A stretch of DNA of 64,000 nucleotides, taken from the IMG/VR virus record IMGVR_UViG_3300021256_000005. One strand, 5' to 3'. The stretch comes from a virus. The position numbers and the translations under genes were made by a program. This document shows positions 2,026 through 62,012 of the stretch, piece by piece. The notes under the pieces are model-generated. The model saw nothing but the letters and a program-made list of their open reading frames with translations. It searched no databases and was not told where the DNA came from. How positions within the stretch are numbered: the first letter of the stretch is position 1; every line of letters starts with the position of its first letter.

Positions 2026-2232
2026 TTATTTTTTAATGATTTTACGTTGCTGATAAACTTGTCCATTATCATCCATCAACATACACAAATCAGACTGTAG
2101 TGTATCGGAAATACAGGCAGAAGATAATTCTCCATGGTAGGCAGATTCTGCTTTATATGCGTCATCATATCTAAAAATTGCCTGAGTTGTTTCTCCTGTT
2201 TTTGTGGTTTGAATAATAATTAAAAAATACAT
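2026..2232 (-). CDS. Small hypothetical protein (68 aa)
   Basis: The start was moved to MYFLIIIQ, which is preceded by AAAGGAAAG. The longer track ORF overlaps the fibre gene end. Confidence 0.5.
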   Translation of the reverse strand: MYFLIIIQTTKTGETTQAIFRYDDAYKAESAYHGELSSACISDTLQSDLCMLMDDNGQVYQQRKIIKK

Positions 2233-2245
2233 AATATCTTTCCTT

Positions 2246-24200: not shown

Positions 24201-26256
24201 GTCCGTCCCATGCTTTCATGGCAACGCCAAAAGTGCCGATGTATGAGAAAAACGCCAAGGCTTTACCTTTAGCAGAAACTAATGCCTGTTCAAAACTTGA
24301 CAGCTGTTTGATAGGCGCAGACATATCCAACGTATAGCCTAACCCGTTGACAGTATTACCAGACATTTTTAACAGCTGTTCACTACCTTGTGCTGTCTGT
24401 AATGTTGCTGATAATGTTTGGATACCTTTTTGACTTTGCGGAGTATGAACTTTTAACAAGCGCATACCATTACGACGCTGTTTAGCGATTTCTGCGTTGA
24501 ATGCATCACTTAACTGCTGACTATATGTTTTAATACCATCCTGTGCAAAATATGTAAAGTTTTTATTGGCTAAACTACTATTGACCTGTTTACGAAATTC
24601 TGATTTTAACTGTTTTTGTGAAGCTTCAAACTCTTTATATTGTGATTCATAATATGACGATAATTTAGAATTGTTATATAGGTTTTTTAACTGTTTAATA
24701 TTATTGTCATGCAATGACTTCTGCATCTGATACTGACCAACCATATCCGCATTGGCAGTGCCAGATTCAGTCATATATGCCGAATTAGAAGTATACAGCT
24801 TTTGTCCAGACACTCTAGCTTTTTGCAGGGCAGTCATAAACTGTTGTTCCTGCTGTGTCATATACTGTTTCGTGCGTGATATATCTACAGTCGGATTCCT
24901 AACCAACGTCCCATCAGACAAGAAAGAACCAGTTACTTTTTGTAGTTTTGTATTACCAGTGTCAAAAACGGTAGTAAAATTAACTAATCCATTTGAGGTA
25001 CGTTTTACAGAACTTGTAATAACATCAAAGCCTTTAGCAACATCTTGTGCCTTTTGAGCAAGATTATCTTGCGCTCTATTGTAATTCTCTGGTGTCCAAT
25101 ATGTAGAATCAGATAGTCCATATTTATTTCTTTGTGTTTCTTTGAAACCATTAAAAACTTTAGGAACACCGTCATCAATTCTGCCAGAATATGTACGAAG
25201 CTTTCTTTCATTAGCATCTACATCAGCAGTCCACGTCTTACGTTTTTCATTGTATTGAACGCCTAGGATTTTTGATAACTCTGTCAGTTGTCCACTATTC
25301 TTTAAGGCTGTTTTAATATCTGATTTTACAATAGCTTGCGACAAAGAGTTAGCAATCCGTTGAGTATCTAATTCAACACGTGTTGGAATTTTATTTGGCG
25401 TAACAGCGTTATAAGCTGTACCAAACTTTAATGGATTATAAACAAAATTCTTATTTGAAGGAATCGTAAAATTAGCAGAAGCTAAATGTAATCCGCTTTG
25501 TTTTGGCAGTAAAAATCTTTCAGTTTTTAAATCATCACCAAAGTAATTTTTACTTTTTGGATACAAAGGATTATTTTTATAATCTTTATAAAAAACAGGA
25601 TTATTTCTTTGTAATGTTTTCCCTTCTTGTAATCTGCGTAAGTTACTTTCCTGTTTTTGGTAAATAGGAACATAAGAAGCATTGTTAATCTTTAATTTCT
25701 TATTGGAAACAAGTACCATATCACTAATTTGATTATGCAAATCATTGATAGTACGATATGTTGATTCCTCAATTCCTTTATATAAATCTGGAATTACTTT
25801 TTCAGCAGATTTCATCAAAGAAGTATAAGACGTAGGAATTTCTACGCCTTTTACTTTAGCCATATTATAATTACTAGCTATCGTCTTTGCAAGCTTACCC
25901 CCTTTATCGGTTTGCAAAAATTGAGTAGGAGATAAGTTAACCTTTTGCGCTTCTTTTTGAAATGTACTATATGCTGTTTTTAAATTTTTAGATATAGATT
26001 CTTTATCAAGCCCGAGAATACGAGACGATAACGGATTCTGTTGTTTTAATTTTCCGATCTCATTGATTGTATTTTTTACAGAACCAAAATTATCTAAAAG
26101 TTTTTTCGGATTAACAACATTAAGTTTAATGTTTCTCGTTTTCTCTAAATTATTAAGCTGTTGTTCAGCTTCGAGTATTTTGCTATCGTCTATATTGAGT
26201 TTTGCATCAATAGCGGCTTTTAATTTAGCTTCAATATCTATAACTCTACTTTTCAA
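15217..26256 (-). CDS. Tape measure protein, 3679 aa
   Basis: A TP901-type TMP core-like segment is present (ELAESLQRSTGTLSALGIDMDKANALTVAGNAIIQNSEQVGTGLRTIALRLQG). Hydrophobic Gly/Ala-rich segments and very long coiled coils are also present. It lies immediately upstream of Dit/Tal. Confidence 0.9.
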   Translation of the reverse strand: MKSRVIDIEAKLKAAIDAKLNIDDSKILEAEQQLNNLEKTRNIKLNVVNPKKLLDNFGSVKNTINEIGKLKQQNPLSSRILGLDKESISKNLKTAYSTFQKEAQKVNLSPTQFLQTDKGGKLAKTIASNYNMAKVKGVEIPTSYTSLMKSAEKVIPDLYKGIEESTYRTINDLHNQISDMVLVSNKKLKINNASYVPIYQKQESNLRRLQEGKTLQRNNPVFYKDYKNNPLYPKSKNYFGDDLKTERFLLPKQSGLHLASANFTIPSNKNFVYNPLKFGTAYNAVTPNKIPTRVELDTQRIANSLSQAIVKSDIKTALKNSGQLTELSKILGVQYNEKRKTWTADVDANERKLRTYSGRIDDGVPKVFNGFKETQRNKYGLSDSTYWTPENYNRAQDNLAQKAQDVAKGFDVITSSVKRTSNGLVNFTTVFDTGNTKLQKVTGSFLSDGTLVRNPTVDISRTKQYMTQQEQQFMTALQKARVSGQKLYTSNSAYMTESGTANADMVGQYQMQKSLHDNNIKQLKNLYNNSKLSSYYESQYKEFEASQKQLKSEFRKQVNSSLANKNFTYFAQDGIKTYSQQLSDAFNAEIAKQRRNGMRLLKVHTPQSQKGIQTLSATLQTAQGSEQLLKMSGNTVNGLGYTLDMSAPIKQLSSFEQALVSAKGKALAFFSYIGTFGVAMKAWDGLKQGINTVKELDDALTEMKVVSNDSYSSLEKFAKVDSFKTAKEASANGLDIQKSTTDWMRLGENLSQAQQSAKEATILYKISDFENVNDATTSLVSMSQAYKNMSKKDIVDKLSKIGNNFSISPQELAESLQRSTGTLSALGIDMDKANALTVAGNAIIQNSEQVGTGLRTIALRLQGTKLSGEQLKAEGEDTSGVPQTQSKINADLMKLTAVASNGYQGVSMEKANGSYKDVYETLLDISKVYGEIQEEDKKYGTNRSSALLELLGGKNRASIVASILQNGDMLQDVYESSKNSSGYSDRDIKIVQDSLSGRLEAFKNQQQKFWANFLDSDGLKDAVSGGTALLNIVTKIWGTMGAVPTGLSMMATVFGYTRAKRKDTNIVKDVKRFAQNVGNHNDLAESRYQELLTGQAQVPVDQRKSEQQLRRQARKETGAGVKGAFSRFWNGEQNPLPMLPEVTENSDSIKRAMSQSADEWEKEVADLKKNGQSIEDAGKTHQALAQQAKKSFDGEASVTAVVGKTNELIKKENETRTSYNNSLTNNGIKGVLKNFGANAISGLATGGIMAAASIGIEAVMTAVSKAIVTKAEAKQATSDMMTTSKTQLENYRQHSEQVSAFKDEYMQLSKGVGDQNQNLSLSTDQYERYLDISNQIASMYPTLVSGYDAQGNAIVNLKGNVEGLNDALAKEQQTAYATAFNGSDDIENSGFNSVVKAYKADTKLDEKQKAEGYILASGAKGEQYDELMKYTGITGEIQRLKDYKIKKGSQDPAIKELLGVTNGDEVTSDAIQSAIKTREATLEAANSTVKQSITGYLKGLDGTYQKLNEQQRTLASDLVNNMSTDAIQNIMSSGNPKSAVISYVSDLTEGINEGGDKLTNAYASIKKKMSNKDKLTSKDLSLLDKDVDILKSGLKGSNAPSVDQLKESLGIADVENVNKRVKKSLQADIFERKPLSNNNWETATVTTTSNSLNKMKQSFVSAGKSLDEANNAVYQQTGYVQLLSGKWIDVDKYVGKFTNSQKEAWLEAVSGATSAAEAVNNYASSMGSITGGFTLPFDLDTEKKNISNIETALKESNSSTGLSSTSISNLTSLFSESGLNTDKLFENSANGIKLNVKSLNELNSAYADTNLKDASVQLEDLRTQYDDVTKSINNTTDSETKLRLLRQQDTLKDEIGQVEQQVSAYTALTSKFNQWQTAISAGSYGAQSDTIRSAKKSIQQLYNNHDWGNEGFQKFVSMFFPDDTDVNKWDADKFAKSYSTKVKSKLNRWFGSDTTDSANNFIQDAIAKGVFKKDDKNGYNLNMDTNTAAKKMGISSSLYDTLLSELKEKGFEIHFDYEPVSTKELKKRIEQDKKDLQADGVTTIGIDFNVTDPQKAKQQITDVANELAKLTDNGKLTKKSEFDSADWDKVKYYTHSLQMLNYNKRQNADASNKYVSSYMNADTSNATEDQKKQITALQTLRRKYNSYQSVQDTIKQGGIVSNKTKSAVKEDLVSSARTLQNLYNKSGNQIGFDLGINVKSDDKTILDQLLASDGKVFQTKVEVDDSSVVNATKDLNAYKEALNKSDNKSAKSKYKTVSKDVSSTATSWSKLLTKKGKLSDSSNGIVTSQYNQLLQAEQSAGLINSKGKSTLKISMSKKDKSNLDKVFKAAGLDMDKVFTISVKDNASKKVDKIDKKKPKDKTVKLSAKDLATKIIQRVDRKALHDKTVKISASTGNIFSLFNELGQPITKRVIVKVGSTGITSGDGKAYKYPGKTGIGVTGHAATVNVPTGTQPLFMTKANGSFHAFANGTDVTIQKDQKALVNEIGQESIVRNGKWSLLDGGAHFESLKSGDIVFNHKQTAELLKNGYVTSNEGHGRLIGSFAHGSIPAYYSANRDTGHVSLISNPKKKKKKTSSKSSSKSTSKSSSKSSSKSSGKSSSKSKSKSSGKGNSKALSSSEKLSKAADKLSSAFDNLHDWIERWIDRVNTRLDRYNNNSTNTTHSFTSRQKNLQSEYNLALDSYRKATTSAKRYMKQADASVKKRTVKFKENGKQYSVTASLSSKYKKLVRDGNYKAIQKIKNPVTKELINEYQSWYDKAQSAVDQQIAWQQKIADIEQQRLDNIKTYYETSANVYTTEKGIYESTNQLLENQGKNISGSYYSNLAKQHSLQNKATSQYEKEQDAYAKEMVNARKAVRDTNTINTKATKQYAKDVEKQKKLQAKLAKDQKKYGKNSKKVKADKKALSKQQAKTAQDKKKVTDSKNEYVAQREYYLSIKATYNEIKQQVIDSKNTSQELINQMKEIRLTLKQWVVDKFGRIADGLKAVATYNTSKHASFDTMDNDAIKNAQLTIQNNQSYLKALRDQRAEMVKQLDDYDPNSQKYQDLAKQISDVDSQILSVGEDINQQVDNIVNTAVNKFTRAITKIQNDIRDASHLFNLLDSDTFVSDAGELNRSGYAGLLLIGEQINKNIDAIQSWKNGIASIQKLYKSGEISEQTLTERMSEYTQSIQQAVESNENLKKSIINIYQTQIQNENQVLQDNINLRKSALSAKEDYYDYNKTLKDKNKDINQLKAEIAALQGVSSEAGAAKLLQLQQQLKDAQEDYDDTVRSHKINLISDGYDDLANNTNKALNNTLDQLKTNSQFQIDIVKDMLDKIKAEYDDAYNYINDVIKRTGTTTEGLNNKTKPVHTNINTASDAGRNVSGDLNTHNSATLDTPTVKTDTSIPDSTAGKTNTNASKGKDNASGDYVYNAPKPAPAPAKTTTPTTTKTTPKTTTAKKKSTAKTVQQKQAEKLIRQKVLAIINSYTPDAKKFQKLSLNSLRKAGIIGGTVVQMNGVQGTVDSHGNLFFNTKGKNSIVRRVNLPTGVIKDFKYDEKSYKKYVKNNKIYSKEFKGALHNRGVKGYSQGGVIDRLIPLSDLMNGDDGIITAQYGEMVLPKSFTQNSVPDFIDSVERMQKLINTTRKATTIVPNINIHYDSLLNVEGSIDAETYPKVKDLLEQSYEYTSKRMYQDIRKTGLR

Positions 26257-30612: not shown

Positions 30613-30651
30613 TCAAAAAAGTAAAGGTGAGTTCTGACACCCACCTTTACT
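30613..30651 (-). terminator. Rho-independent terminator after the major tail gene
   Basis: A 10-bp stem pairs agtaaaggtg (30620-30629) with cacctttact (30642-30651), followed on the minus strand by TTTTTT. The next RBS follows immediately. Confidence 0.75.
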
Positions 30652-30664
30652 ATAATTATTTTGT

Positions 30665-31468
30665 TTACTCAGCGTCAGTTTTCGGAATAATAATCTTGAA
30701 CAGAGTTTTCTCTTTATCACAGTATGCCTGCTGTGCAATGACAGAGAACGGATGGTTGCCATCGGTCTTGAAATCAATAGTAACCTTCGGATCAAGTTTA
30801 GCATTCGGGAAAATAATATAAGCATGAATCTTAACAGACGGATTACATACATCACAACCAAGAACTTCCAGTACGAACTTACCTGCACGGGGGAAGTTTT
30901 TAGCGGTGTTAGTAACACCAACTGCCTGATCGGACTCATAGTCATACATTACGAAAACCTGAGAACCAACCGCTACATCACTACCAAGAGTAATTTTCTT
31001 CTGAGAAGCATCATAAACAAATTTACCGTTTCCTGCGGAAGCACTACCTTTCAGTTCCTGTCCAAGAGTACCATCGCTATTCAGAACATAAATGCTCTTT
31101 ACATCCTGAGTCGGTGTATGTTTCAGTGTTAAAACAGCAGAAGCACTAGCAACATCAATAGTTTCAAAAGTCGGAACTACCATCTTGTTATCAGCTGTTG
31201 CGGATACTTTGGCAGTACCAGACTGAGCGGCAAGCAGTCCGAGGTCGAACAGAGAGTTCTGTCCAGAGAAAGTTGCTTCTTTCGCTCTATCGAAAGTCAT
31301 AATACGAGAACCAAGTGCATCAACCGCATCGGTGCTTTCAGAAGTCATTTCCAGAGACGGTTCGGTAATCTGGTTGATAGACCACATGTAAGAACCATCT
31401 TCGGTAGAAGTCATGATACCTCTCAGCGCATGGTCAATGACAAAGTTATTAGGATTAAATTCAGCCAT
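30665..31468 (-). CDS. Major tail (tube) protein candidate (267 aa)
   Basis: Locally higher GC content and a strong terminator. The size and position after the head-tail connector genes fit. The protein is Ser/Thr/Ala/Gly-rich and beta-type. Confidence 0.6.
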   Translation of the reverse strand: MAEFNPNNFVIDHALRGIMTSTEDGSYMWSINQITEPSLEMTSESTDAVDALGSRIMTFDRAKEATFSGQNSLFDLGLLAAQSGTAKVSATADNKMVVPTFETIDVASASAVLTLKHTPTQDVKSIYVLNSDGTLGQELKGSASAGNGKFVYDASQKKITLGSDVAVGSQVFVMYDYESDQAVGVTNTAKNFPRAGKFVLEVLGCDVCNPSVKIHAYIIFPNAKLDPKVTIDFKTDGNHPFSVIAQQAYCDKEKTLFKIIIPKTDAE

Positions 31469-42067: not shown

Positions 42068-43105
42068 TTATTCCTCAAGGTCATGACCAAAGATATTGTC
42101 AAAAGCAATTTCTGTATCTGATTCACCTTCATATTCTGGTTTTTTCACGGTATACTTTTCTATAAACCGTCTGTACAAGTGAGAGAGTGGATTTTTAATT
42201 TTCAAATTCTCACACATGTGACCACGATAGAACACATCAATATACTGTCCAATACGATCTACATCCTTTAGTTCTGGGTCAATATCTGGACATGGACGTT
42301 CGGTTTCCCATTTTTGAATCAGAGTACCAAAGGTTTGCGCTTCTGAAAAAGCATCCAACACGTTTTGTTTTGGCGTTAAATTTCCAGAGTTCATTAACTC
42401 CTGTAAAGTTTTATATAAGTCTTTAGTCGGCAAATCATCTTGATTAGCCTTGCGGATTTTTAACTGTGTTTCAGCAATACTCTGTAACACAATTTCCATA
42501 GACTTAGTATTACACTCATAGCGGGTACTCCAATCTTTATACTGCTCATATAAAAACTTATAATCTTCTGTAGAGTATCCACGCCCGAAACGTGCTATGG
42601 TGTCTTTTAACTGCTCCTTCGTAAGTCCATACTCACTTAAATTCTGCGTTGTATCACTCGATTGCTCAAAACTCATAGTACGATAATTTGCATTTCTTTG
42701 TAATATACCTAAATACTGCTCATTAACATACATAACTTTTGTTGGGTCTGAATTGTTTTTAACCATCTCTTGCGCTGATTCATAAATAGAATCAATAAAC
42801 GGCAAATCTATTAGTTTTAATCCTTTTTTTAACGTATCAATATTTTCATACTTGATACCAGTTCCAGTATCGGTTGGGATTATAACTTGTTTGACGCATT
42901 GTTTACAAATAGGCAAAACATTTGATCCCCATTTCTCGCTTTTATAAAAATCAGATTTAGGTTTAAATTCAGCACAGCAATGACAATAAGCTCCATTTTT
43001 CATAGACTCATAAGCTTTACTCAAAGTCTTGTACATCTGTTTTACTTCATTTGGGGTTTTGCCTTTTAGAACGTCAACATCATCAAATGCAGTAATTTTT
43101 TTCAT
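42068..43105 (-). CDS. Packaging-module protein with a zinc finger; small-terminase candidate by position only (345 aa)
   Basis: It lies immediately upstream of TerL. It contains CHCCAEF ... CKQC. Confidence 0.35.
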   Translation of the reverse strand: MKKITAFDDVDVLKGKTPNEVKQMYKTLSKAYESMKNGAYCHCCAEFKPKSDFYKSEKWGSNVLPICKQCVKQVIIPTDTGTGIKYENIDTLKKGLKLIDLPFIDSIYESAQEMVKNNSDPTKVMYVNEQYLGILQRNANYRTMSFEQSSDTTQNLSEYGLTKEQLKDTIARFGRGYSTEDYKFLYEQYKDWSTRYECNTKSMEIVLQSIAETQLKIRKANQDDLPTKDLYKTLQELMNSGNLTPKQNVLDAFSEAQTFGTLIQKWETERPCPDIDPELKDVDRIGQYIDVFYRGHMCENLKIKNPLSHLYRRFIEKYTVKKPEYEGESDTEIAFDNIFGHDLEE

Positions 43106-43683
43106 CCTATTTCTCCTTTTGACATATTAAAACAACTATTGAGTGATATTTCTATCTGCCAATATATATCTTCATACATATTCAGACACGTAGCATATAA
43201 CAGCCGAGCAGTCGGGAGCGACCCAACTGCTTTGTTATACCTATAAAACTACGGATAGACTGCTTACTATCACCTTTTACACACCTTTCGGCACAAATAT
43301 CGTTTTGTTTTAGAATGTACTTGTATAAAAAGCCTTGTGCTACTCAGACCAAACTCCAACGTTATACACGCATTTCTGCGCTTCACGGCTCTACAGATTA
43401 TTGATATTCCGCAGGTTTGATACAGTCATCGGCTAAACCCTAACTACGGTTATTGTACACAGTACCGTCTATTGCTCTGTCCGTCTCGTTTGTTCCTTTG
43501 TATGCGACACATATTGACACATATTCTTGATGTTGAGATTCTGTCTCTCCTTGCACAATATCACTATTATGCAACAGCAATAAACACAAGGTATACCTCA
43601 TGCGCTTACTGATCTTCCGAACATTCTCAGCACCGTTGGTTTCACGGCTCTGCACTGAGTTACTCAATAGCTGTTTTAATGTT
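43106..43683 (-). other. About 580-nt ORF-poor, helix-rich non-coding block upstream of the packaging genes (candidate ncRNA, leader or pac region)
   Basis: The block lies between a strong terminator at 43684-43719 and the 42068..43105 gene. An 11-nt direct repeat ttcacggctct occurs at 43382-43392 and 43641-43651, and multiple hairpins are present. Confidence 0.4.
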
Positions 43684-43719
43684 TCAAAAAAATAGTGGGT
43701 ATTTTTCGTACCCACTATT
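43684..43719 (-). terminator. Rho-independent terminator
   Basis: An 11-bp stem pairs aatagtgggta with tacccactatt and is followed on the minus strand by T7. It overlaps the stop of the 43715..44872 gene. Confidence 0.8.
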
Positions 43720-44872
43720 TAATACCACCTAATTCAAAAGTGTATTCAATTGCTTTTCCTTGTTCATTAAAAATAAATAAATTTGATTTTGGTGTAGAAG
43801 ATAACACCTGTGACGTAGCATATGGATCAATGCCAATCACGCTACCTACAGATAACACATTGCACCGAGTGCCAACTTCTTTTGACTGGCTATGATGAAT
43901 GTGTCCAGAAATTAAGTAGTTAATATCTGTATGATACAGCCTAGTAAATTCATGAATTGCGGTAGAAAGATTTTTTACTTCACCATGAATCCCTAAAATA
44001 TTAAATCCACAAATGGTTTCAAAATTCATTCCAGTTGGATTTTCAGCAATTGTTATGTGATTATTATTCCGTAATCTTATTTTTAAAAACTCACGAATCA
44101 CGTAACTCATGTTTTCATCTGGGAAAGAATTTTTCGGCTGTCCAAGTAAACGTAATTGATTATGGTTAGAATCACTCACCATCTGAAATTTTACATCTAC
44201 ATACTGACTAATATCGTTTAGCCATTCTGCAATATATTCAGCATAACGAATGGCTGATTCGATCACACCATACTGCAATTGTTTCAGCTGAGAACTAAGC
44301 CTAAGCATACCTTGTACACTATCGCCTAATTCCCAAATAGAAATAGAAGATAAGTTTTCACGTTTAATAGCATCTAATAAACACTGTTTCATATATTCCA
44401 TACGGCTTACGAATACATGACTATTGTACTTATTAACAACATTACCTGCTAAATCTTTAATACAAAACTCAATTCCGAAATGACAATCAGAAAAGACAAA
44501 TAGTCCCGCTCTGTTATTATCGGTTTCTTTAACAGGCAGTCCGACTGACCGATAATCCATATCTGGAAGTGCCTTAATAGCGTCAACTATCTTTTCTGTA
44601 ATTAATTCATCACGTGCTTTCTCACGCAGTAAACGGTTGTATTCAATTTTTTCAGTTTGAATCTTTTTTCTTTCTTTAAGCAATTCATAATATTCCGCAC
44701 TAGCGGTTAAACTAGCATATTGCTTACGATATTTACTTTCCGTATATTTCACATGCAGTATATCATTTAATACATTCGCCACATCTTCCCACGTACCAAT
44801 AGTATCTTTTAACGAACAAATTCTTTTAATTACATCTTCATCAGATTCATTTGGTAAACGCTCAAACTGCAT
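43715..44872 (-). CDS. Calcineurin-like metallophosphoesterase (385 aa)
   Basis: The ordered motifs are SDCHFG (DxH), LGDSVQG (GD), SDSNHNQ (GNH-like), GIHGE and SGHIHH (GHxH). Confidence 0.75.
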   Translation of the reverse strand: MQFERLPNESDEDVIKRICSLKDTIGTWEDVANVLNDILHVKYTESKYRKQYASLTASAEYYELLKERKKIQTEKIEYNRLLREKARDELITEKIVDAIKALPDMDYRSVGLPVKETDNNRAGLFVFSDCHFGIEFCIKDLAGNVVNKYNSHVFVSRMEYMKQCLLDAIKRENLSSISIWELGDSVQGMLRLSSQLKQLQYGVIESAIRYAEYIAEWLNDISQYVDVKFQMVSDSNHNQLRLLGQPKNSFPDENMSYVIREFLKIRLRNNNHITIAENPTGMNFETICGFNILGIHGEVKNLSTAIHEFTRLYHTDINYLISGHIHHSQSKEVGTRCNVLSVGSVIGIDPYATSQVLSSTPKSNLFIFNEQGKAIEYTFELGGIK

Positions 44873-52564: not shown

Positions 52565-52679
52565 ACAGTCTCCTTTTATAAATTTATGTTTGGTTTAAGA
52601 ACAGTATAATCCGGAATGGGGTTAAAGTCAAGAGAAAATAAAAATAAATTAAGTATTGACAAAATTAAAAAGTTGTGTT

Positions 52680-53580
<901 letters not shown>

Positions 53581-53599
53581 TTAAACAGTGTGGTTGCTA

Positions 53600-56365
53600 T
53601 ATATTATTATTTATTAAATATTTTATCTATTACTTTATCTATCGTTTGTATTATTCATTCACACTATTGAATTGTTATTATATACCCATACAACAACACA
53701 CAGTCATTTTGTGCGCTGTTTTATATATGCAGTTTAATAAGTTTACCCTAAATTATTAAAACGTCTGTATAAGCCTAATAGATATGTTATTTGAGGTGTG
53801 CCTTTTTTGGCGGGTTCTATTTTGTTGCGTGCTAGTTCCTGAGCTGTTTAGTTTATTATTTAATCGCTGTTATTTGCGCCGCCAAATTATATATACCAAA
53901 CGTCCTGTATTTTTAGCGTGTTTGTATTTGTTTGGTTGCCTATTTAGTTTAGTGTTCTGTAAGATGAGACAGTAAACTATTTGGATGTTATATTTAGTTA
54001 TATATTATATTATATATTTATATATTATTGACTGTCCAATTATTTTTCTGCGCCTTGTATCTTTGTCGGCTTTGTTTTATATTATTACTACAGTATTTTA
54101 TAGAACCGCTTGTCTGAAACATGCCTATATCTACACCTATTGATTGTACGCATGTTTTTATGACACCACCCTATAACTTTTACGTCTGAGAATAAAAACG
54201 TCTATATGAGCGTTTTAGAGCATTGTATAATACATTGATGATTGTCTATGTGTTTTGTTTAGTTAAATAAATTTAATTAAATTTCTTTAAGTATTTATTG
54301 GTGCGCCACTAGAAATATAGGCAGTATTTGACTGCTTTGTTTTGCGATGGTAAACTGTATTAAATAATTATTTGCGTGTTTTATTACCGCCTGCGAAATA
54401 GAATAATGTATATTTATTCATTGTTTATACATTTTGACTTGTTTGGTTGTTAATTTTTGCGGCTGTAATTTTTGGTTGTAGCCGTTAATGTTTGCGATGG
54501 TCTGTTTAATGTGTAAATATACCCCGCCTGTTTATTAAGTATGAGATCGCTGTTGGAGTACTTTTTTAATGTGTTTTGTATGTTATTTAGCTGAAAGATA
54601 GTTAAGCCATTAAGCAGTCAATTAGTTTAGATGATTGTTTTATGTTTGATTGAACAGAGCAATAGTGGTTGTTTCGTATTATTATATAGCACTTAAATGA
54701 TTGCTATTGTTTTGCTGATGGTTTATTCTGCGTTATTAGACAGCTAATTAGTTGAGCAGATATATGCTAATTTGTCCGCGCTGTAATTAGTTTATTTATT
54801 GGAGCAGTAAGTGATTTGCTAGTTCTATATTGCAGTTGTTTAGTCAGTGATGTTTGATGTTAAATTAGTTAGGTTCCTAACTAACTAGGTGCTAAGCCAT
54901 TTTTGTGGCGACTGAGGGTGTTATTTTATATTAATTATATATAGTTACTAATTAGTTACTAGTATTTAGCGGTTGATAATATAGTGCAGGACAATTGCCT
55001 AATTTATATGGTTACTTATTGGTTACTAATTATGTTGTTGTTTTATGCAGTGAGTGGATTCTATTAGGCGATTGAGAAGTTGATTCTGGCAGTTAATTAT
55101 TATTGAATTAAGCCGCTGAATTACTTTATTTGATTGTTGTTTTGGAAGGTGTTATTTTGTGTTGATTCGAAATTATTAGGACGTGATGTAACTAATTGTA
55201 GTTACTAATTGGTTATTAGTTACTTATTAGGTATTAAGTATGTTGTTAGTTATTTATTAGTTACGTTGCGATTTATTTAGTTGCTTCTTAATTTATTTAT
55301 GTTTTGTAATATTACTTATTCTGCGACTGATTAAGTATTGGGAAATTCATTAATCTACTGATTTTGTTATGGTTTCTAAGATATCTTCTGACGTAAAATT
55401 GGTTTTGATTAATAGTTAAATATATTTAATTATTTAGTTGAGTAGTTTTACGATTGCTGTATTGATCTGATTGTAGTTGGTAAGAAGTAATATTATTGGC
55501 TGTTAGAACTATATGGTATTAGCAGAGTATATGATTGTTGTAGTTTAGTGGTTAATTTGTTGTGTTGTTTAATTATTAAACAGTGATTTATTTAGTAGCG
55601 AGCAACAATAAGTAATAAGTTTTTAGTTAGAGTGTTAATTAGTTGTAGTGCTGATTGAACACTGATGGTTTAGTAGTGATTTATTAGAGTGATGATTGAT
55701 TTATTTATGTTTTGGTAAATTTATTTGGTTTTTGTAAATAATTTTAGGTAGATATATTTAATTATTATTTATAATGACTGAGTTGGCAAGTTATGAATGT
55801 TACTTGAAGTATTCAATTCATTTTAATAAGCCTGAGATTTTCTTGTGTCGATTTAACTTATTGAGAGTAGTTTTATAGGACGCAATTCTGATGGAACAGT
55901 TTAACAATAAGGCTACTTGATCGTTTAATTAATTAGTTAGTTATTAGGTTTTTAGTTTTTTAGAGATTGATTTAGTGGATAGTTATTTATTAATGCGGGA
56001 TTTGGTGAGTAGAACTTTTATTTAGTGAATGTGGCAGTTTGATAAGTAGGTGATGGTATAGGTTGTTAGTTAGTAATGTTGATTGGTGGTAGTGTTTATA
56101 GATTAGTGGTTATTTAGTGAATTAGTTAGTGATTGTTGCTGATGTTGATTGGTTGATAGTGTATTAGTTATGATGTTTGTTTGATTGATAGGTGTGATGG
56201 CTGTTTGTGGGTGAGTGAGTTATTTGGTAATTTTATTTGATTTTTTTGTAATTAGTTTTTGTTAGTTTCTTTAATAGTGAGTTATTTATTTGGTGAGTTT
56301 GTTGGATTTTTGGAATGTTAGTGAGTTTTTAGTGAGTTGGGAAGTGAGAAGGGTGAGATTTTGAC
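53600..56365 (+). other. About 2.7-kb ORF-free tract, G+T-rich on the plus strand, with C depletion increasing rightward
   Basis: By my count there are 7 C in 55921-56364 (444 nt). Stop codons are dense in all six frames. Confidence 0.85.
54943..55265 (+). repeat. Cluster of at least 8 GTTACTAAT / GTTACTTAT / GTAACTAAT iteron-like motifs
   Basis: Copies occur at 54944-54953, 54955-54964, 55011-55020 and 55022-55031. Further copies are at 55188-55197, 55201-55210 and 55219-55228, with degenerate copies out to 55265. Confidence 0.7.
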
Positions 56366-56617
56366 GGGGTGTGTGAGTTTACCTCCATATAGCTATTTTA
56401 GCTTTACACTTTTGTCAAAATGTATAAATAACCCCCTTTTGACGTCGGATAATAAAAATTACCCGACATGGCACTTTTTTGACATTTATGTCAAAAACTT
56501 AATAGTTAAATTTTTTTAACTAATTTTTTAATTATATATTATATATTATGCATAATATATTATATATCATATATTATATAAAATTATATTTGACACAATA
56601 TAAATTTCCAGAGCAAC

Positions 56618-56718
56618 AAAATACTTAAAAATCTTTAACCATTCCCATCCCATCAAAAATACTTAAAATAATTTAACTATTATTTTTGCTCTAAAAATAC
56701 TTAAAAATTTTTAACTAT
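56618..56718 (-). repeat. Three direct repeats (about 38-bp period) of AAAATACTTAAAA-N-TTTAAC(C/T)AT, the reverse complement of the TAGTTAAA-N-TTTAAGTATT boxes
   Basis: Copies lie at 56618-56642, 56655-56680 and 56693-56718. They sit 100-200 bp upstream of the consensus promoter at 56815. Confidence 0.75.
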
Positions 56719-56814
56719 CTCACCAGAACAAAAAATATATTTCATCAAATATAATTTGATACAACGTTATGCTGCACGTCACCAAACAAAAAATAAATTT
56801 TTTCCAAAAACCTA

Positions 56815-56843
56815 TTGACACAACGCGATACTAGTGCTATACT
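56815..56843 (+). promoter_or_regulatory. Near-consensus sigma-A/sigma-70 promoter with an extended -10 and an A/T-rich UP-like tract
   Basis: TTGACA (56815-56820), a 17-nt spacer ending in TGC, then TATACT (56838-56843). Upstream is aaaaaataaattttttccaaaaa. Confidence 0.8.
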
Positions 56844-56849
56844 ATAGTC

Positions 56850-57430
56850 AAGATAAAGATATAACTTATTTATCTTATCGTTCGGGCACTCTGCCCGCCC
56901 ACCGCTATCACAGCGGGCGTACCTTGACAAGTTACCTGTTGGTAACTCATAAGATAGGAGAACACCGTGACGGGTGAACTCTGCCTATCGTTAGTTTGAT
57001 AATTCTAACGCCTAAAAATTATCAGCCTATCTATAGGCGTAGTTTGCATACCCATGATAGGTTTACTATGAAATCGGCAACTGAAACCGTAGTTATGATA
57101 GAGTCGTTTAGACTCAAGTAGTCGGGTACAAGCCGAGTAGTAAATTGGGATTCATGGCAGACAAACTACAGCTATAGACAGGTGACTTACCCTTTGTATA
57201 TGTGAGGGTGTCGGGCTTTTCGGGTGTCCCATCAATACATCCAGGACGAAAATCATATACCGAACAAAATTGTCAACCGACGTGCCAGGGGTTGAATGTT
57301 TGCGGACTCAGTGCGCTTAAATAGCAGATAAATTTACACCGCAACATTGGCCGCCTGGTATGTCGTTACCTTGTAAGTTGCTTTAATTGCATGAGTTTAT
57401 CGTGCAATTAACGCAACTTATAAAGCGCAA
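56850..57430 (+). ncRNA. About 580-nt helix-rich untranslated RNA (long leader or stand-alone large ncRNA candidate)
   Basis: No ORF of 60 aa or more in this orientation. GC content is clearly higher than the surroundings. Many local hairpins are present: cgggca/tgcccg, agttacc-tgtt-ggtaact at 56930-56947, cgttag/ctaacg, and a 17-bp hairpin at 57374-57420. Confidence 0.5.
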
Positions 57431-57447
57431 TAAAAAAGGAGAAAACT

Positions 57448-58023
57448 ATGTTAAAATTTAATCAGATTTCAAACGGCTTTATTGACAAGACAGCAAAGGA
57501 AAACAAGGCGGGCATTACCCGCATAATTAACTACGGCGTATCCCTCGTTGATCACGCCGAGAAACTTCTGTCTTTGCAGGAAGAAAAGAAGGAAGCAGAA
57601 AACAATCTGAATTCTGCTTCTGAAAAGTTAGACGGCACAATCTCCATTGACGAACGTGCCGCAACTCTGTTATCGTATCGGCTGAAAGTTAACGCAGTCA
57701 GTGAGAAGATTAAAGCAGAAAACAAAAGTTTTCGCTCGAAATCAAAGGTATTCACCGATGCCTTCAAGACGTCTGAATTATATCAGGCGTACAAAGAGTT
57801 TGACGGAACTGGAAACAGTTACCTTGATGCCATGTCAACGTTTCTTGATTTAGTCGGTATTGTACCGACTAAAAAAACTGTCAAAAAACTTTGCCGTCTT
57901 GCTGGTGGCTCAGTAACTACTGGCAATAAAGAAATAATAAATTGCCAATTCACAAAACGCCTGTCTAAAAAGGCGTTTGAAACTTTAATCATTAGATTGC
58001 TGTGTGAAGAGTTCGCACAATAA
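57448..58023 (+). CDS. Hypothetical early protein (191 aa)
   Basis: Strong RBS (AAAGGAG). Helical protein with no motif recognised. Confidence 0.65.
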   Translation: MLKFNQISNGFIDKTAKENKAGITRIINYGVSLVDHAEKLLSLQEEKKEAENNLNSASEKLDGTISIDERAATLLSYRLKVNAVSEKIKAENKSFRSKSKVFTDAFKTSELYQAYKEFDGTGNSYLDAMSTFLDLVGIVPTKKTVKKLCRLAGGSVTTGNKEIINCQFTKRLSKKAFETLIIRLLCEEFAQ

Positions 58024-58039
58024 TTAGAAGGAGGAAATT

Positions 58040-58225
58040 ATGAGTTGGTTTGATGCAACAAAAAATTATCACGGGTATACAAAAGAAGAGTTCTATTCGG
58101 TATTCACCGATGAAGAACTCAATAGGAAATATGCCGAACTGGTTGAACATTATGATTCAATCAGGCAGGCTGACGCAGGGATACTATATGATATTCTCTG
58201 TGAACTATCAATAAAAATAAAATAG
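58040..58225 (+). CDS. Small hypothetical protein (61 aa)
   Basis: RBS GAAGGAGG; a terminator follows. Confidence 0.6.
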   Translation: MSWFDATKNYHGYTKEEFYSVFTDEELNRKYAELVEHYDSIRQADAGILYDILCELSIKIK

Positions 58226-58248
58226 GGCGCAAGCCCTATTTCTTTTTT
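58222..58248 (+). terminator. Rho-independent terminator
   Basis: An atagggc-gcaa-gccctat hairpin is followed by ttcttttttatt. Confidence 0.8.
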
Positions 58249-58317
58249 ATTATTATATATACATGTGTCACGTTTAATGGGTTCCCATAAAAACGTGGCA
58301 GAACAGAAAGGGACACG

Positions 58318-58593
58318 ATGAAAAAGAAAATAATCATTTTAGCTGTAGCATTCGGCATGGCTTTAATCATTGGTGGTCACTCTGACTATGAAACCACTAG
58401 AGCAGAAAAAGATGTCTTTTCTACTTATTCCACCGTTGAAAATATCAACGGTCAAACATGCGTAAATGTCAAAGGTGATTACTTCGCTTTTGATGATGAT
58501 TCAATCAAAGAAAACAACTACGTGAGTGTTACAGTTGATACTCACGGTTCAGACAATAAGCATGACTGGACACTTGTCCGAGTGTGCAAGTAA
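58318..58593 (+). CDS. Small secreted or membrane-anchored protein (91 aa)
   Basis: Signal-peptide-like N terminus (MKKKIIILAVAFGMALIIGG). Confidence 0.6.
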   Translation: MKKKIIILAVAFGMALIIGGHSDYETTRAEKDVFSTYSTVENINGQTCVNVKGDYFAFDDDSIKENNYVSVTVDTHGSDNKHDWTLVRVCK

Positions 58594-58628
58594 CCAATAA
58601 GATATAGATAAATATAAAGGAGCAAACT

Positions 58629-58970
58629 ATGGAAATAATTAACTTAACCCCTCATGCAATCAACATTATTACAAATAAAACCACTATCACTATTGAACCG
58701 AGTGGCACAGTCGCACGTGTCACGGCTAAAACTGTTCAGGTGGGAACGATGAACTGTGTGGATTGTGATGGTGTTAATATCCCTGTTACTACAACCGTCT
58801 TTGGGGAGATTGAAAATCTTCCCGAAGAAAAACCAGAGACAATTTATATTGTATCGGCTATAGTTGCGAAATGTTGTACAAATCGGTTCGATGTATTTGT
58901 TCCTAATGGATCTGTTAGGGATGATAATGGGCGGATCATCGGATGCAAGTCACTCAGTAGAATTTATTAA
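58629..58970 (+). CDS. Hypothetical protein (113 aa)
   Basis: RBS AAGGAG. The LTPH ... PSG ... ARV pattern recurs in unannotated phage and plasmid proteins; this is from my recollection only. Confidence 0.6.
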   Translation: MEIINLTPHAINIITNKTTITIEPSGTVARVTAKTVQVGTMNCVDCDGVNIPVTTTVFGEIENLPEEKPETIYIVSAIVAKCCTNRFDVFVPNGSVRDDNGRIIGCKSLSRIY

Positions 58971-58987
58971 GAAGGGAGAAAGAAATT

Positions 58988-59344
58988 ATGAGCATGAAAA
59001 CTACCAGAAAAGCAGTCGTTAATAACTACCCGAATATCAGGTCAGCAGACTACTGTGATTTACAGGCATTACTGCGCAATCATAACCCCCTTTGCCATAC
59101 AGAAGGCATTTACGGGTGGAACTTTGACGTATACAGCGTATACGGTCTGACAATCTGCACAGGATACCGTAACATGCCGGGAAAACGTTTAGAAGGCATT
59201 GGAACCTATGAGAAAAAAGCCGCCGCAATATGGTCAGATTATGATAATTATAAAGGTGTTGGCGGATTCGAAAAACAGCAGTCAGAAGTAGAAGAACTCT
59301 TAAAAGAGTTTTGCAAGTTGAATGGAGGGAACAATTATGAATAA
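58988..59344 (+). CDS. Hypothetical protein (118 aa)
   Basis: RBS AAGGGAGAAAG. Contains YCDLQALL ... GIYGWNFDVY. Confidence 0.6.
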   Translation: MSMKTTRKAVVNNYPNIRSADYCDLQALLRNHNPLCHTEGIYGWNFDVYSVYGLTICTGYRNMPGKRLEGIGTYEKKAAAIWSDYDNYKGVGGFEKQQSEVEELLKEFCKLNGGNNYE

Positions 59345-59630
59345 ATATAAATTTACAAGTAAGGGACGCACATTTACACGTGTAAGTAAGACAGCCGCAA
59401 AAAAGGCATTTATAAATGGTTTTACTATTGCGTTATGTCCTTCTAATTTACGCCCGGGTGCGCCATGGCACCCGGAAACAATTACAAACAGAGAAATAAT
59501 TGGCGCAGAAAATCCGGCTACGGGTTTTGACGTATTATTAAGTTCGTTCGAATACTTTAATTGCACGAACACAGAAACAGGAAGATATGCGGAGTTCTTT
59601 ATCGAAAGCGAGAATAACGAAGGAGAGTAA
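59337..59630 (+). CDS. Hypothetical protein (97 aa)
   Basis: The start was moved to MNKYKF, which is preceded by GGAGGG. It overlaps the upstream stop. Confidence 0.55.
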   Translation: MNKYKFTSKGRTFTRVSKTAAKKAFINGFTIALCPSNLRPGAPWHPETITNREIIGAENPATGFDVLLSSFEYFNCTNTETGRYAEFFIESENNEGE

Positions 59631-59632
59631 CT

Positions 59633-60181
59633 ATGACAAAATCTAGCATCACCAAATTCATCAACTTTTTTAAGAAGGAAAATAATTTAATTCTGGAACG
59701 TCATAATGAAACCATTCTTATTTCTGAGGGTCATGCAATTTATGAAATAGATTCATATATTTATGACACATATTTCAGTATTAAAAGTCCTAGATTTCAA
59801 TTTCCAGAACTGGAAAATCATGTGTGTTACATGGCAAACAGGAAGAATGAAATTCCTAGTCCTACAGGGAGCAATAAGTTGAAAGATATATATGAAAAAG
59901 CTAAACACTCAGCCACAAAATCAGTGGAATTAACGAAGTGGGTAATTAAAGATGATGCAGATTTGATGCGACTATATAAAGGCGATGAATTTGTTGTTTC
60001 GTGCAATGAAAAGTTCGTTGAACTGGCGTCATATCTTAGTGTGGACGTTCACATGGCATTAGGCAGTGATTACAAATCACCAGTAGTATTTAATACATGC
60101 ATGGTTTTACCAATGCTGATTAAAGATTCTGAAGTGTGGAATCAGCTGGCAGAAATCATGAAGGTTAAAACTACACACTGA
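59633..60181 (+). CDS. Hypothetical protein (182 aa)
   Basis: RBS GGAGAG, closely following the previous gene. Confidence 0.6.
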   Translation: MTKSSITKFINFFKKENNLILERHNETILISEGHAIYEIDSYIYDTYFSIKSPRFQFPELENHVCYMANRKNEIPSPTGSNKLKDIYEKAKHSATKSVELTKWVIKDDADLMRLYKGDEFVVSCNEKFVELASYLSVDVHMALGSDYKSPVVFNTCMVLPMLIKDSEVWNQLAEIMKVKTTH

Positions 60182-60197
60182 AAACAATTCGGGTCTG

Positions 60198-60284
60198 GAA
60201 AGAATTTCAAATTAGGTACTGATTTTTGAAAGCAGTGAAAACTGAATGCCGAAAAGAATTTGAAAATAGGTACTAGTTTCAAAG
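60198..60284 (+). promoter_or_regulatory. Tandem pair of about 34-nt hairpin repeats with a conserved TAGGTACT loop; the second abuts the RBS
   Basis: gaaagaatttcaaattaggtactgatttttgaaag lies at 60198-60232 and gaaaagaatttgaaaataggtactagtttcaaagg at 60251-60284. The tttcaaa and tttgaaa arms are swapped between the two copies. Confidence 0.55.
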
Positions 60285-60296
60285 GAGGAAACTATA

Positions 60297-62012
60297 ATGA
60301 GCTTAAAAAATGACGTAATCGAAGTATTAGATAATGAGAAATATATCTATTACAATGATGCAGTGTCAAGAATTATTAACGCTTATGAACCAAATAAACA
60401 TGAGGTAGTTGACATTTTACGCCGTCATCCTGACTGGAACGAGGATAATATGTCAATCTGTATCCCCGCAACATCGTATACACGAAAGTTCAATAGTAAT
60501 GCAATTTCCACGTTTGTAGATTACCTGATAGGCAGTATTTATTTCTCTGAGGAATTTCAGAATAATCTGGTAACATACTGTGCCGTGATGAATTATCAGT
60601 TACTCTCCAAATCTTTAGGAATAATATATTGTAGTGAAGTCATGCGTAAATGGTGGTTTGAAGAAAATGAACCATTGGTTAATGAGGATGGTGCCCTTCT
60701 ATACACACGGAATAAAGTTAGTACAGGAAAATATAATACTATTTTTCATGTATGCCCGAAAATAACGAAGGTGTTATCTTTCATTAGTTCGCTTAATACA
60801 GTTTTTTTCAATGCTGATATGGACGACGAATTAAATGAACTTAACGCCGATTTCCCGGCGTTCCATCTGCGAAACAACATGAAAACGTCAAAGGCAATCG
60901 GCAAAATTTGTAGAGAAATGGGTTGGGATAAATTTCCCAAATATAATGAAAAGTATGCGGCACTGTGTGACGAGATTAACCCATTAACAGTGCATACGCC
61001 TACATATATCAGTGTTCACCCTTGTGATTATTTATATATGTCAGATGGACATTCATGGACTAGCTGTCATGATATTCGAAACGCTGATGATCCGGGATGC
61101 TACAGTTCTGGCACTATCAGTTATATGTTAGATCATTATAGTTTCATCGTATACACACTGCCAGAAGTAGTAACCGAAAAACCGTGGAATCAGCCGAAAC
61201 TGCAAAGGGAAGTGTTTGCTCTGAAAGACGGTGTTATATTACAGAGCAGATTATATCCGCAGAGCTGTGATAACGGTTCAGGGGATGCTTATAGGGAAAT
61301 CCGCAACGTTGTACAGAAGGTAATTGCGGATTGTCTTGGGCAGCCTAATCTGTGGCAGACAAAACATTACCCGAATGTAGAACAGTACATCGTCCATGGT
61401 GACGGTGCTACCTGCTATCCAGATTGGAAAGACGGAAATCCTGGATCTACATATTGTTCCCTGACGTTCTTAAAGGGAATTGATCTCACCCATTTCTCAA
61501 TGGAAATCGGTGCAACACCTGTATGTCCAAACTGCGGAATGGAACATTGTCGTGAAGACAGTATTATCTGCGAAGATTGTGGAAACATTATCACCTGTGC
61601 AGATTGTGGCTGTGAGATGGACAGAGACTGCGCTTACATGATTGATGATGAATATTATTGTGAAGGTTGTGTCTTTTGGTGTGAATACCACGAGGATTAC
61701 GAACTAATTTCTAATGGTGTAACAGAAGTTGACGGATACGGTCAGGTTTGTGATCGAGCGTTAGAATATGGAGATTTTTACCAATGTGAATATTGCGGGG
61801 AATGGAAGTACGTAGAGGATATAATCCGCACAGAAGATGGTTGTTATTACTGTTGTGAAGAATGTGCAATTAGAGATGGTTATAGGGAAACCACCGATGG
61901 ATGGTATCTTGAACGTAAAACAGTAAAATGTCCACATTGCGGACGTTACAATTTAGAAGAAGACGATCAGTGCTATTGGTGCGGTAAATTTGTTGCGGGG
62001 GTGGCATCATGA
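60297..62012 (+). CDS. Hypothetical 571-aa protein with a Cys-rich multi-zinc-ribbon C terminus
   Basis: At least 7 CxxC pairs occur in the last roughly 170 aa (CPNCG, CEDCG, CADCGC, CEGC, CEYCG, CCEEC, CPHCG, CYWCG). A conserved-looking core (HPCDYLYMSDGHSWTSCH ... GCYSSGT) is present. Confidence 0.7.
   Translation: MSLKNDVIEVLDNEKYIYYNDAVSRIINAYEPNKHEVVDILRRHPDWNEDNMSICIPATSYTRKFNSNAISTFVDYLIGSIYFSEEFQNNLVTYCAVMNYQLLSKSLGIIYCSEVMRKWWFEENEPLVNEDGALLYTRNKVSTGKYNTIFHVCPKITKVLSFISSLNTVFFNADMDDELNELNADFPAFHLRNNMKTSKAIGKICREMGWDKFPKYNEKYAALCDEINPLTVHTPTYISVHPCDYLYMSDGHSWTSCHDIRNADDPGCYSSGTISYMLDHYSFIVYTLPEVVTEKPWNQPKLQREVFALKDGVILQSRLYPQSCDNGSGDAYREIRNVVQKVIADCLGQPNLWQTKHYPNVEQYIVHGDGATCYPDWKDGNPGSTYCSLTFLKGIDLTHFSMEIGATPVCPNCGMEHCREDSIICEDCGNIITCADCGCEMDRDCAYMIDDEYYCEGCVFWCEYHEDYELISNGVTEVDGYGQVCDRALEYGDFYQCEYCGEWKYVEDIIRTEDGCYYCCEECAIRDGYRETTDGWYLERKTVKCPHCGRYNLEEDDQCYWCGKFVAGVAS

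Follow-up and report, generated by a model that had tools for sequence, protein, structure and literature searches.

Why should a strong phage promoter be followed by some 600 nucleotides (nt) of untranslated sequence before the first gene is reached? The question arises at positions 56815–57447 of IMG/VR virus record IMGVR_UViG_3300021256_000005, of which we analyzed a stretch of 64,000 nt (hereafter the window) that derives from a phage of ~77 kb. The initial annotation, made from the letters of the DNA, had placed a helix-rich untranslated RNA here and had offered, as a fallback explanation, a novel long leader or a riboregulator. This fallback has stood the test. Judged from comparison with a diverged relative, the element (the leader, in what follows) is a real, selected and previously undescribed structured RNA of narrow distribution, large, non-coding and encoded behind a very strong promoter. 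The reading that we prefer, with a probability of about 0.4, is that it is the early leader of a new RNA family whose 5′ hairpin would repress translation of the phage endolysin in trans. Large and highly structured RNAs are rare in bacteria and phages, and new ones have tended to expose unexpected biology.

Transcription unit, fold and conservation of the leader

The promoter had been described as near-perfect, with an extended −10 TG and an A/T-rich UP-like tract, and a consensus scan agrees. TTGACA (56815–56820), a 17-nt spacer and TATACT (56838–56843), with TG at 56835–56836, match the sigma-A consensus at 11 of the 12 hexamer positions, and the site as a whole (56815–56843, plus strand) is the top-scoring one in 55500–58500. 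The UP-like tract, read directly from the sequence, occupies 56784–56814 on the same strand. Copies of the leader were obtained from the contigs of relatives of the downstream gene, ORF191: L012 holds the only diverged full-length copy, L013 holds 48 nt of a third copy, and L011 holds an identical one. In L012 the UP-like tract is kept, both hexamers and the TG are unchanged, and four substitutions fall in the spacer. At the promoter the GC content rises from 0.15–0.31 to 0.40–0.46, which locates the switch in composition noticed earlier, and transcription would start at ~56850.

Downstream of the promoter, the first ribosome-binding site (RBS) with a start codon on the plus strand had been placed correctly about 600 nt away: AAGGAG at 57436–57441, predicted to be unpaired, and ATG at 57448. 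The RBS is part of a variable linker (57424–57447, plus strand) with lineage-specific indels and 77% identity. The longest plus-strand open reading frame (ORF) between the promoter and 57448 has 47 amino acids (aa), in keeping with the claim that none of 60 aa or more lies on this strand. A small-protein-coding region was considered and rejected, as L012 has stops or frameshifting indels in all small ORFs of both strands; the substitutions between the leader and L012 show no third-position bias.

The first rightward gene, ORF191 (57448–58023, plus strand), has a coding-type substitution pattern and is followed by ORF61 (58040–58225, plus strand), the second gene of the unit in the ORF list, with an RBS, GGAGG, upstream. 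Just past ORF61, a terminator scan identified a terminator-like hairpin with a T-run (58220–58250, plus strand), the first intrinsic terminator on this strand, which closes a unit composed of the promoter, the leader, ORF191 and ORF61. Since no terminator stands between the RNA and the gene, the leader as encoded is a 5′ leader, and by its predicted boundaries it makes up the 5′ 40% of a transcript of ~1.4 kb. The terminal hairpin of the RNA (57371–57423) is not an intrinsic terminator, because no U-run follows it. This arrangement, with a promoter on one side, a same-strand RBS and start codon on the other and no terminator in between, is what distinguishes a cis-encoded mRNA leader. No other strong plus-strand sigma-A-type promoter was found in 56.8–64 kb.

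Folding of positions 56850–57447 (598 nt) gave −206.7 kcal/mol, with z = −7.84 against 100 dinucleotide shuffles. In a calibration series with 42 other 598-nt windows the background was z −1.6 ± 1.7, the leader reached −10.1, and the ROOL RNA encoded elsewhere in the window reached −7.3. Of the 600-nt stretches sampled across the window, the leader is thus the most structured, with z −7.8 to −10.1, which bears out the earlier description of a helix-rich RNA. Its middle part is unremarkable in 150-nt windows, and the folding signal therefore has its source in long hairpins and in pairing over longer distances.

The resemblance to the ROOL and GOLLD classes that the initial annotation had proposed did not survive a search of Rfam 15, in which the leader is not represented. 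At gathering thresholds, the whole window gave a single match, ROOL (RF03087), and nothing at the leader. Positions 56300–57700, compared with all of Rfam 15, gave no match to either class even at E ≤ 10, the only hits being miRNA and snoRNA hairpins of 14–21 bits, far below their thresholds. For GOLLD, OLE, raiA, HEARO, group I and II introns, T-box, riboswitches, ribozymes and pRNA there was no model match in that interval. As a positive control, the same library scored the ROOL at 43126–43683 (minus strand) with 300.3 bits, the Rfam gathering threshold of this family being 99.1 bits.

Regarding selection on the fold, the structure used in the covariation test was the minimum free energy (MFE) structure of the window sequence alone and is therefore uninformed by L012. 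Double changes that preserve a pair numbered 7 in L012 against 1.43 under a null of permuted substitutions (P = 0.0002), and 13 pairs were broken against 25.8 expected, a count equally low in 0 of 5000 permutations. Likewise, when the 3′ partners of the RNAalifold consensus were slid by 1–3 columns, 0–1 double changes were found, compared with 7 in register. The compensatory pairs are scattered along the leader (H6, the rod, H19, H21, H23 and H26), and the L012 copy, folded by itself, has z = −5.47 and reproduces the main hairpins. The covariation check that had been called for was thus positive in this two-sequence comparison: an energy that beats shuffled sequences, together with compensatory pairs between two diverged sequences, marks a structured RNA under selection.

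Overall, the leader and L012 are 84% identical, or ~88% when a 14-nt deletion of one hairpin is excluded, a conservation that exceeds that of synonymous sites in ORF191. Divergence amounts to 12.2% at paired and 13.0% at unpaired sites. On this comparison, purifying selection acts on paired and unpaired nucleotides alike, and because both are equally constrained, sequence-specific roles of the leader beyond helix stability are suggested.

The consensus fold comprises roughly ten hairpins, all given here on the plus strand; among them are a 125-nt rod and, near the 3′ end, two of 22–26 bp. It opens with a 5′-terminal stem-loop (56852–56879), for which L012 folds an equivalent hairpin, followed by two small G+C-rich pentaloop hairpins (56884–56896 and 56902–56916) that are invariant in L012 and by a variable hairpin, GUUACC-UGUU-GGUAAC (56931–56946), cleanly gone in L012 through the 14-nt deletion. 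Hairpin H6/H7 (56953–56989) carries two compensatory pairs (G-C to A-U and G-C to C-G), and H9 and H10 (56998–57038) carry three one-sided, G-U-compatible changes. The long rod-like domain H11–H18 (57042–57166) is the most conserved part of the leader, being 92–96% identical to L012 with one compensatory pair, and it is independently predicted from the L012 sequence. Beyond it lie H19–H21 (two compensatory pairs), H22 (a conserved 9-nt loop) and H23 (one compensatory pair), which together span 57170–57274, and the irregular 26-bp hairpin H24/H25 (57278–57365) of the two-sequence consensus, whose apical region of ~33 nt (57306–57338) has one substitution relative to L012. The terminal hairpin H26 (57371–57423) is composed of 22 bp with one compensatory pair, and its 3′ arm is also kept in L013. 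The two long 3′ hairpins would be plausible substrates for RNase III.

Two structural claims made earlier were revised in part. A 17-bp hairpin had been drawn at 57374–57420, 27 nt before the ATG; the hairpin exists, and corresponds to H26 as redrawn here, with 22 pairs and a distance of 24 nt to the ATG. A pairing of tatcttat at ~56870 with ataagata at ~56950 had also been suggested. The two words are indeed complementary, but their pairing is unsupported: L012 deletes part of the 5′ partner, and covariation favours instead the local hairpins at 56852–56879 and 56953–56989, the latter with its two compensatory pairs. More generally, the two-sequence consensus consists chiefly of serial hairpins and one rod, and the long-range helices of the single-sequence MFE find no support in it. 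Two further candidate interactions were discarded. One, spotted by eye, would pair GCGCUU of a conserved internal loop with AAGCGC (57424–57429), a 3′ partner not conserved in L012 or L013; the other, a complementarity of the ~33-nt apical region to the ROOL of the window, was no better than that of shuffles.

Complementarity of the 5′ hairpin to the endolysin start

When the leader was searched against the rest of the window, positions 56859–56876 (AUAUAACUUAUUUAUCUU) matched positions 1033–1050 exactly over 18 nt. Because the genes at 1033–1050 lie on the minus strand, the leader RNA is perfectly complementary to the lysis mRNA. The ORFs concerned encode an amidase endolysin (244–1053) and a holin (1040–1411), the stop codon of the latter overlapping the start of the former. 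The complementary stretch, read from 1050 to 1033, begins directly after the endolysin AUG, and its 18 contiguous Watson–Crick pairs cover endolysin codons 2–7 (KINKLY) and the holin stop codon, which together form the candidate trans target. In the 5′-terminal stem-loop of the leader, the match runs from the upper part of the 5′ arm through the loop into the 3′ arm. Extended complementarity at or near the translation start of the target, as found here, is characteristic of antisense RNAs.

A match of this length was reached by 2 of 3000 dinucleotide shuffles, and real windows of the genome outside the low-complexity tract rarely give matches of at least 18 nt. Among 61 start regions, that of the endolysin is the best partner of the 5′ segment of the leader (−24.1 kcal/mol, versus −16.7 for the runner-up), with a z of about −4.5 to −5.5 for the pairing. 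A second antisense candidate (56934–56969 against the ORF at 30613–30945) was rejected as a patchwork of short helices located partly in the hairpin that L012 lacks, and RNAduplex with the whole 600-nt leader was uninformative because it allows huge loops.

Substitutions in relatives bear on both partners. In the diverged lysis cassettes of L027 and L028, the sole change in the 18-nt target is G1039 to A, a synonymous change from AAG to AAA. In the L012 leader, the same segment has two transitions, both situated in the hairpin loop: C56865, the partner of G1039, is changed to U, and A56863 is changed to G, which faces an unchanged U and gives a G·U wobble. The pattern at G1039/C56865 is what trans covariation would look like; it is suggestive, though not proof.

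Under the preferred reading, host sigma-A RNA polymerase would start at ~56850, from the strongest promoter in that part of the genome, and would produce the ~1.4-kb transcript that contains the leader (about 575–600 nt), ORF191, ORF61 and the terminator at 58220–58250. The 5′-terminal stem-loop would serve as a trans-acting antisense element, its loop and 3′ arm base-pairing to an 18-nt segment of the late lysis mRNA. Pairing within the ‘five-codon window’ blocks 30S binding. Pairing that begins right behind the endolysin AUG and spans the holin stop codon would thus block 30S binding or create a substrate for RNase III, and an abundant leader RNA could hold endolysin synthesis back until late in infection, or in the lysogen. 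The RNA would owe its stability to the structured body and to the long 3′ hairpins, features that may also allow its cleavage from the mRNA; the folded body probably has further functions. Holin and antiholin proteins are classically credited with the timing of lysis in tailed phages; braking of endolysin synthesis by a trans-encoded RNA would therefore be a new layer of control and, if true, would mean RNA-based control of lysis timing or silencing of prophage lysis. From the sequence data, we give roughly even odds that the leader–endolysin pairing is functional. The wider proposal of a new class, namely a stable phage regulatory RNA of ~575 nt, made from the first promoter used by the host polymerase, whose 5′ hairpin is an antisense endolysin brake and whose conserved body has further functions with protein or RNA partners, in a genome that also encodes a ROOL, is a doubtful one at present.

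Partial precedents can be named. The c4 RNAs of phages P1 and P7, the subject of work by Citron and Schuster in 1990, are reportedly ~77 nt long, released by RNase P and directed against their own operon. As with c4 and the type I antitoxin RNAs, the leader would be a regulatory antisense RNA that heads an operon transcript, with an exposed loop that pairs with the translation start of a gene harmful when expressed prematurely; unlike in c4, the candidate seed sits in an RNA of ~600 nt and the target is the lysis cassette. The c4 RNAs are listed as antisense regulators in PMC12197685. According to a passage of the same source, phage PAK_P4 has a cis-antisense RNA of ~550 nt over the endolysin gene that is proposed to delay lysis (PMC12197685). 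As summarised there, this RNA, PAK_P4as15 (PMC5563952), resembles the leader in being a phage RNA of ~550 nt and a proposed repressor of endolysin translation. It differs in that the leader is encoded ~56 kb from the endolysin in window coordinates and has only an 18-nt seed, and both mechanisms are putative.

Several observations weigh against an antisense role of the leader. In 79 trials, control segments reached z −5.0, compared with −5.5 for the leader segment; the match is A/T-rich, and matches of 16–17 nt are frequent among real windows of 600 nt from this genome. The leader variant (L012, SRR29381473) and the target variants (L027, SRR14741773; L028, SRR29381443) were found in different samples, with no proof of a common genome, and trans covariation is therefore consistent with the data, not demonstrated by them. 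The L012 leader also pairs equally well with either target variant. About 30 nt suffice for the antisense function, which leaves ~570 nt of constrained RNA unexplained. Additionally, two diverged full-length copies and 48 nt of a third are the whole comparative base, and the helix support therefore rests on few events. With respect to orientation, the minus strand of the region folds nearly as well (z = −7.75), so that energy alone does not fix the strand, and the strand test is weak, with 13 broken pairs on the plus strand and 19 on the minus strand; the argument for the plus strand is carried by the promoter and by gene orientation.

Competing explanations

The alternative that survives best, which we consider somewhat unlikely, is a purely cis-acting leader that would shield the abundant early mRNA from 5′-end-dependent RNases, provide hairpins for RNase III-type processing (H24 and H26), or bind a factor that sets the expression of ORF191 and ORF61, with the endolysin complementarity being due to chance. 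Phage early mRNAs, such as those of T7 and Bacillus phage SP82, have structured 5′ leaders processed by RNase III, and the leader shares with them long hairpins, a strong promoter for the host polymerase and a stem-loop near the 5′ end. Its position in the transcript would suit such a role: the RBS is unpaired, with a variable linker and no terminator before it, the 5′-terminal hairpin begins at most 2–3 nt from the predicted start, and two hairpins of 22–26 bp lie shortly before the RBS. In a distant relative, L020, the same position is taken by a structured leader that is not homologous, and long A/T-rich exact matches arise by chance in this genome. The T7 and SP82 elements, however, are single hairpins without constraint over ~570 nt that includes unpaired regions. 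In the leader, unpaired sites are constrained like paired ones and the 33-nt apical region is near-invariant, which exceeds the needs of a stabilizer, and chance would have to explain both why the 18-nt match, in antisense orientation, falls exactly on a translation start and why the substitutions seen in relatives agree with it.

It seems to us improbable that the leader represents a new class of free-standing ‘ornate’ RNA, an RNA-only assembly or ribonucleoprotein with a role like that of ROOL or GOLLD, which would be co-transcribed with the early genes and then processed free. Similarities to these classes are nevertheless real and include the size (~575 nt, versus a ROOL average of 581 nt), occurrence in Firmicutes phages or prophages, a very strong folding signal, which in the leader exceeds that of the ROOL in the window, and no established function. 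The phage lineage already has a true ROOL, syntenic in L016 and L020; the constraint on paired and unpaired sites is uniform; and a 3′ end created by processing could find protection in the terminal 22-bp hairpin. On the other side, besides the failure to match Rfam, the consensus, drawn from two sequences only, shows mostly serial hairpins and no supported multistem junctions or pseudoknots, whereas the architecture of ROOL is defined by multiple junctions and pseudoknots (PMC5737381). No 3′ end is predicted for the leader. It also lies directly behind a promoter instead of between late genes or near tRNAs, and it is confined to 2–3 closely related lineages, whereas ROOL and GOLLD span several phyla (PMC5737381). 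ROOL and GOLLD are often adjacent to tRNA genes, in prophages; there are no tRNA genes anywhere in the window. Unlike these classes, the leader offers a concrete functional handle in its promoter, its transcription unit, the 18-nt endolysin match and the candidate single-pair covariation.

Processive antitermination of the lambda nut/N or HK022 put type, in which the leader, with or without ORF191, would make RNA polymerase read through 58220–58250 into the downstream rightward genes, appears very unlikely. It would account for a sole strong plus-strand promoter in 56.8–64 kb that is followed, after two ORFs, by a canonical terminator and further same-strand genes without good promoters, and several hairpins of the leader are of boxB size (5-bp stems with pentaloops). 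Nut and put elements, however, measure 40–70 nt against the ~600 nt of the leader, inspection by eye revealed no boxA-like motif, N, Q and LoaP share no detectable similarity with ORF191, and the phage’s own YonO-type RNA polymerase could transcribe the downstream genes.

Least credible is the absence of any RNA element, the region being a DNA-level site (an origin or packaging site with hairpins in single-stranded DNA) or coding for a small protein: the near-equal fold of the minus strand and the peculiar 4.3-kb non-coding tract at the border would suit it, but L012 disrupts every small ORF, the substitution pattern is unlike that of codons, the plus strand has fewer broken pairs, and the conserved strong promoter points into the element and on to a same-strand RBS and gene.

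Distribution and genome context

Searches for further copies covered several collections. A distant-setting blastn of the leader and of 57448–62012 against 50,697 phage records returned no homologue, protein-anchored searches of IMG/VR with ORF191, the helicase and ORF571 returned no leader homologue, and scans of IMG/VR with 19–21-mers, together with scans of JGI metagenomes and GTDB genomes, returned chance matches only. Comparison of the leader with L001–L010, L018–L023 and MT835481.1 by nhmmer and blastn gave no match. Matches of 21–23 nt in L014, L015 and L017 lacked similarity in the flanks and were dismissed as chance. By these searches the leader RNA is lineage-restricted, occurring in two or three closely related lineages in all collections searched, and this rarity is the main weakness of the case.

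The distant relative L020, whose helicase is 38% identical, has the same gene order as the window (helicase, RdRP, YonJ, ROOL, YonG). At 1116–1597 on its minus strand, a sigma-A-type promoter (TTGCAA, a 17-nt spacer, TATAAT and the TG) precedes an ORF-free leader of 447 nt, A/T-rich yet significantly structured with z = −5.0, which ends at an RBS and a gene of 360 aa. The tracts before this promoter are G+T-rich (about 2100–2420, minus strand), followed by A/T-rich repeats. The two leaders have no detectable sequence similarity, and homology between ORF191 and the first gene after the L020 leader is not established (BLASTP E > 5; hhalign E = 0.084). The group as a whole may thus carry long structured leaders at the equivalent position, with L020 as the one example. 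An ORF-free gap in L005 was rejected as a further analogue, its fold being weak (z −3.0).

ORF191 and the coding sequence in L012 are 78% identical, and 82 of the 128 differences fall at codon position 3 (43% divergence there), a substitution pattern by which ORF191 is a real gene. It has two relatives, 84% and 81% identical, and an exhaustive profile search of 1.84 billion representatives found none outside its own cluster. Pfam, PHROG and PDB gave no matches (best Foldseek match in PDB, E = 0.31). The AlphaFold model, with a mean pLDDT of 68, comprises a helical hairpin and a small alpha/beta domain. Unusual structure is found further downstream as well, in the 3′ end of ORF191, in ORF61 and around the terminator, with z = −7.8 for the 598-nt window 58001–58598; local peaks occur at 57850–57999 (z = −6.1) and at 58150–58299 (z = −7.0), the latter including the bidirectional terminator hairpin at 58220–58241.

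Elsewhere in the window, a leftward late block encodes the holin, the amidase endolysin, a terminase, a giant tape-measure-like tail protein of 3679 aa with a PhageMin_Tail domain (15217–26256, minus strand), and YonG-like and YonJ-like proteins that flank the ROOL. The full-length ROOL (43126–43683, minus strand) sits between the YonJ-like (43715–44872) and YonG-like (42068–43105) late genes, and ROOL occupies the same syntenic spot in the close relative L016 (9058–9615; 310 bits) and in L020 (14087–14720; 287 bits). Toward the leader, a YonO-type single-chain RNA polymerase of 926 aa with an RdRP domain (PF05183; 48035–50815, minus strand) lies beside a UvrD helicase, and these are followed by the ORF-free tract of ~4.3 kb, the promoter and the leader.

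The nearest relatives of the polymerase belong to uncultured human-gut phages and to phages of Bacillus, Clostridium and Enterocloster. The endolysin (244–1053, minus strand) clusters at 90% identity with a chromosomally encoded protein of Clostridium sp. SY8519, WP_013976107.1, which is 97% identical to it. The polymerase relatives and this cluster point to a gut Firmicutes host and possibly to a temperate lifestyle. The endolysin link also suggests a related prophage or lysis cassette in the cultured SY8519 strain, and it hints at a cultivable system.

The tract between the helicase and the promoter (52565–56800) contains no ORF of at least 90 aa, and the assemblies of relatives break in it. 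Its composition is uneven: 52.6–54.0 kb has ~21% GC with TATA-type low complexity, while the plus strand of 54.9–56.35 kb, composed of degenerate TTAGT, GTGAGT and TTGGT words, has a strong G+T bias (GC skew as high as +0.9, AT skew as low as −0.44). At 56618–56718, about 100 nt upstream of the promoter, three direct repeats of AAAATACTTAAAAATnTTTAAC occur with an exact spacing of 38 nt. These repeats are also present upstream in L012, and in L020 a similar word, TGTATAAAAATnnTTTT, recurs ahead of the analogous promoter. The AAAATACTTAAAAATnTTTAAC repeats are candidate regulator-binding sites or candidate promoters for the phage polymerase.

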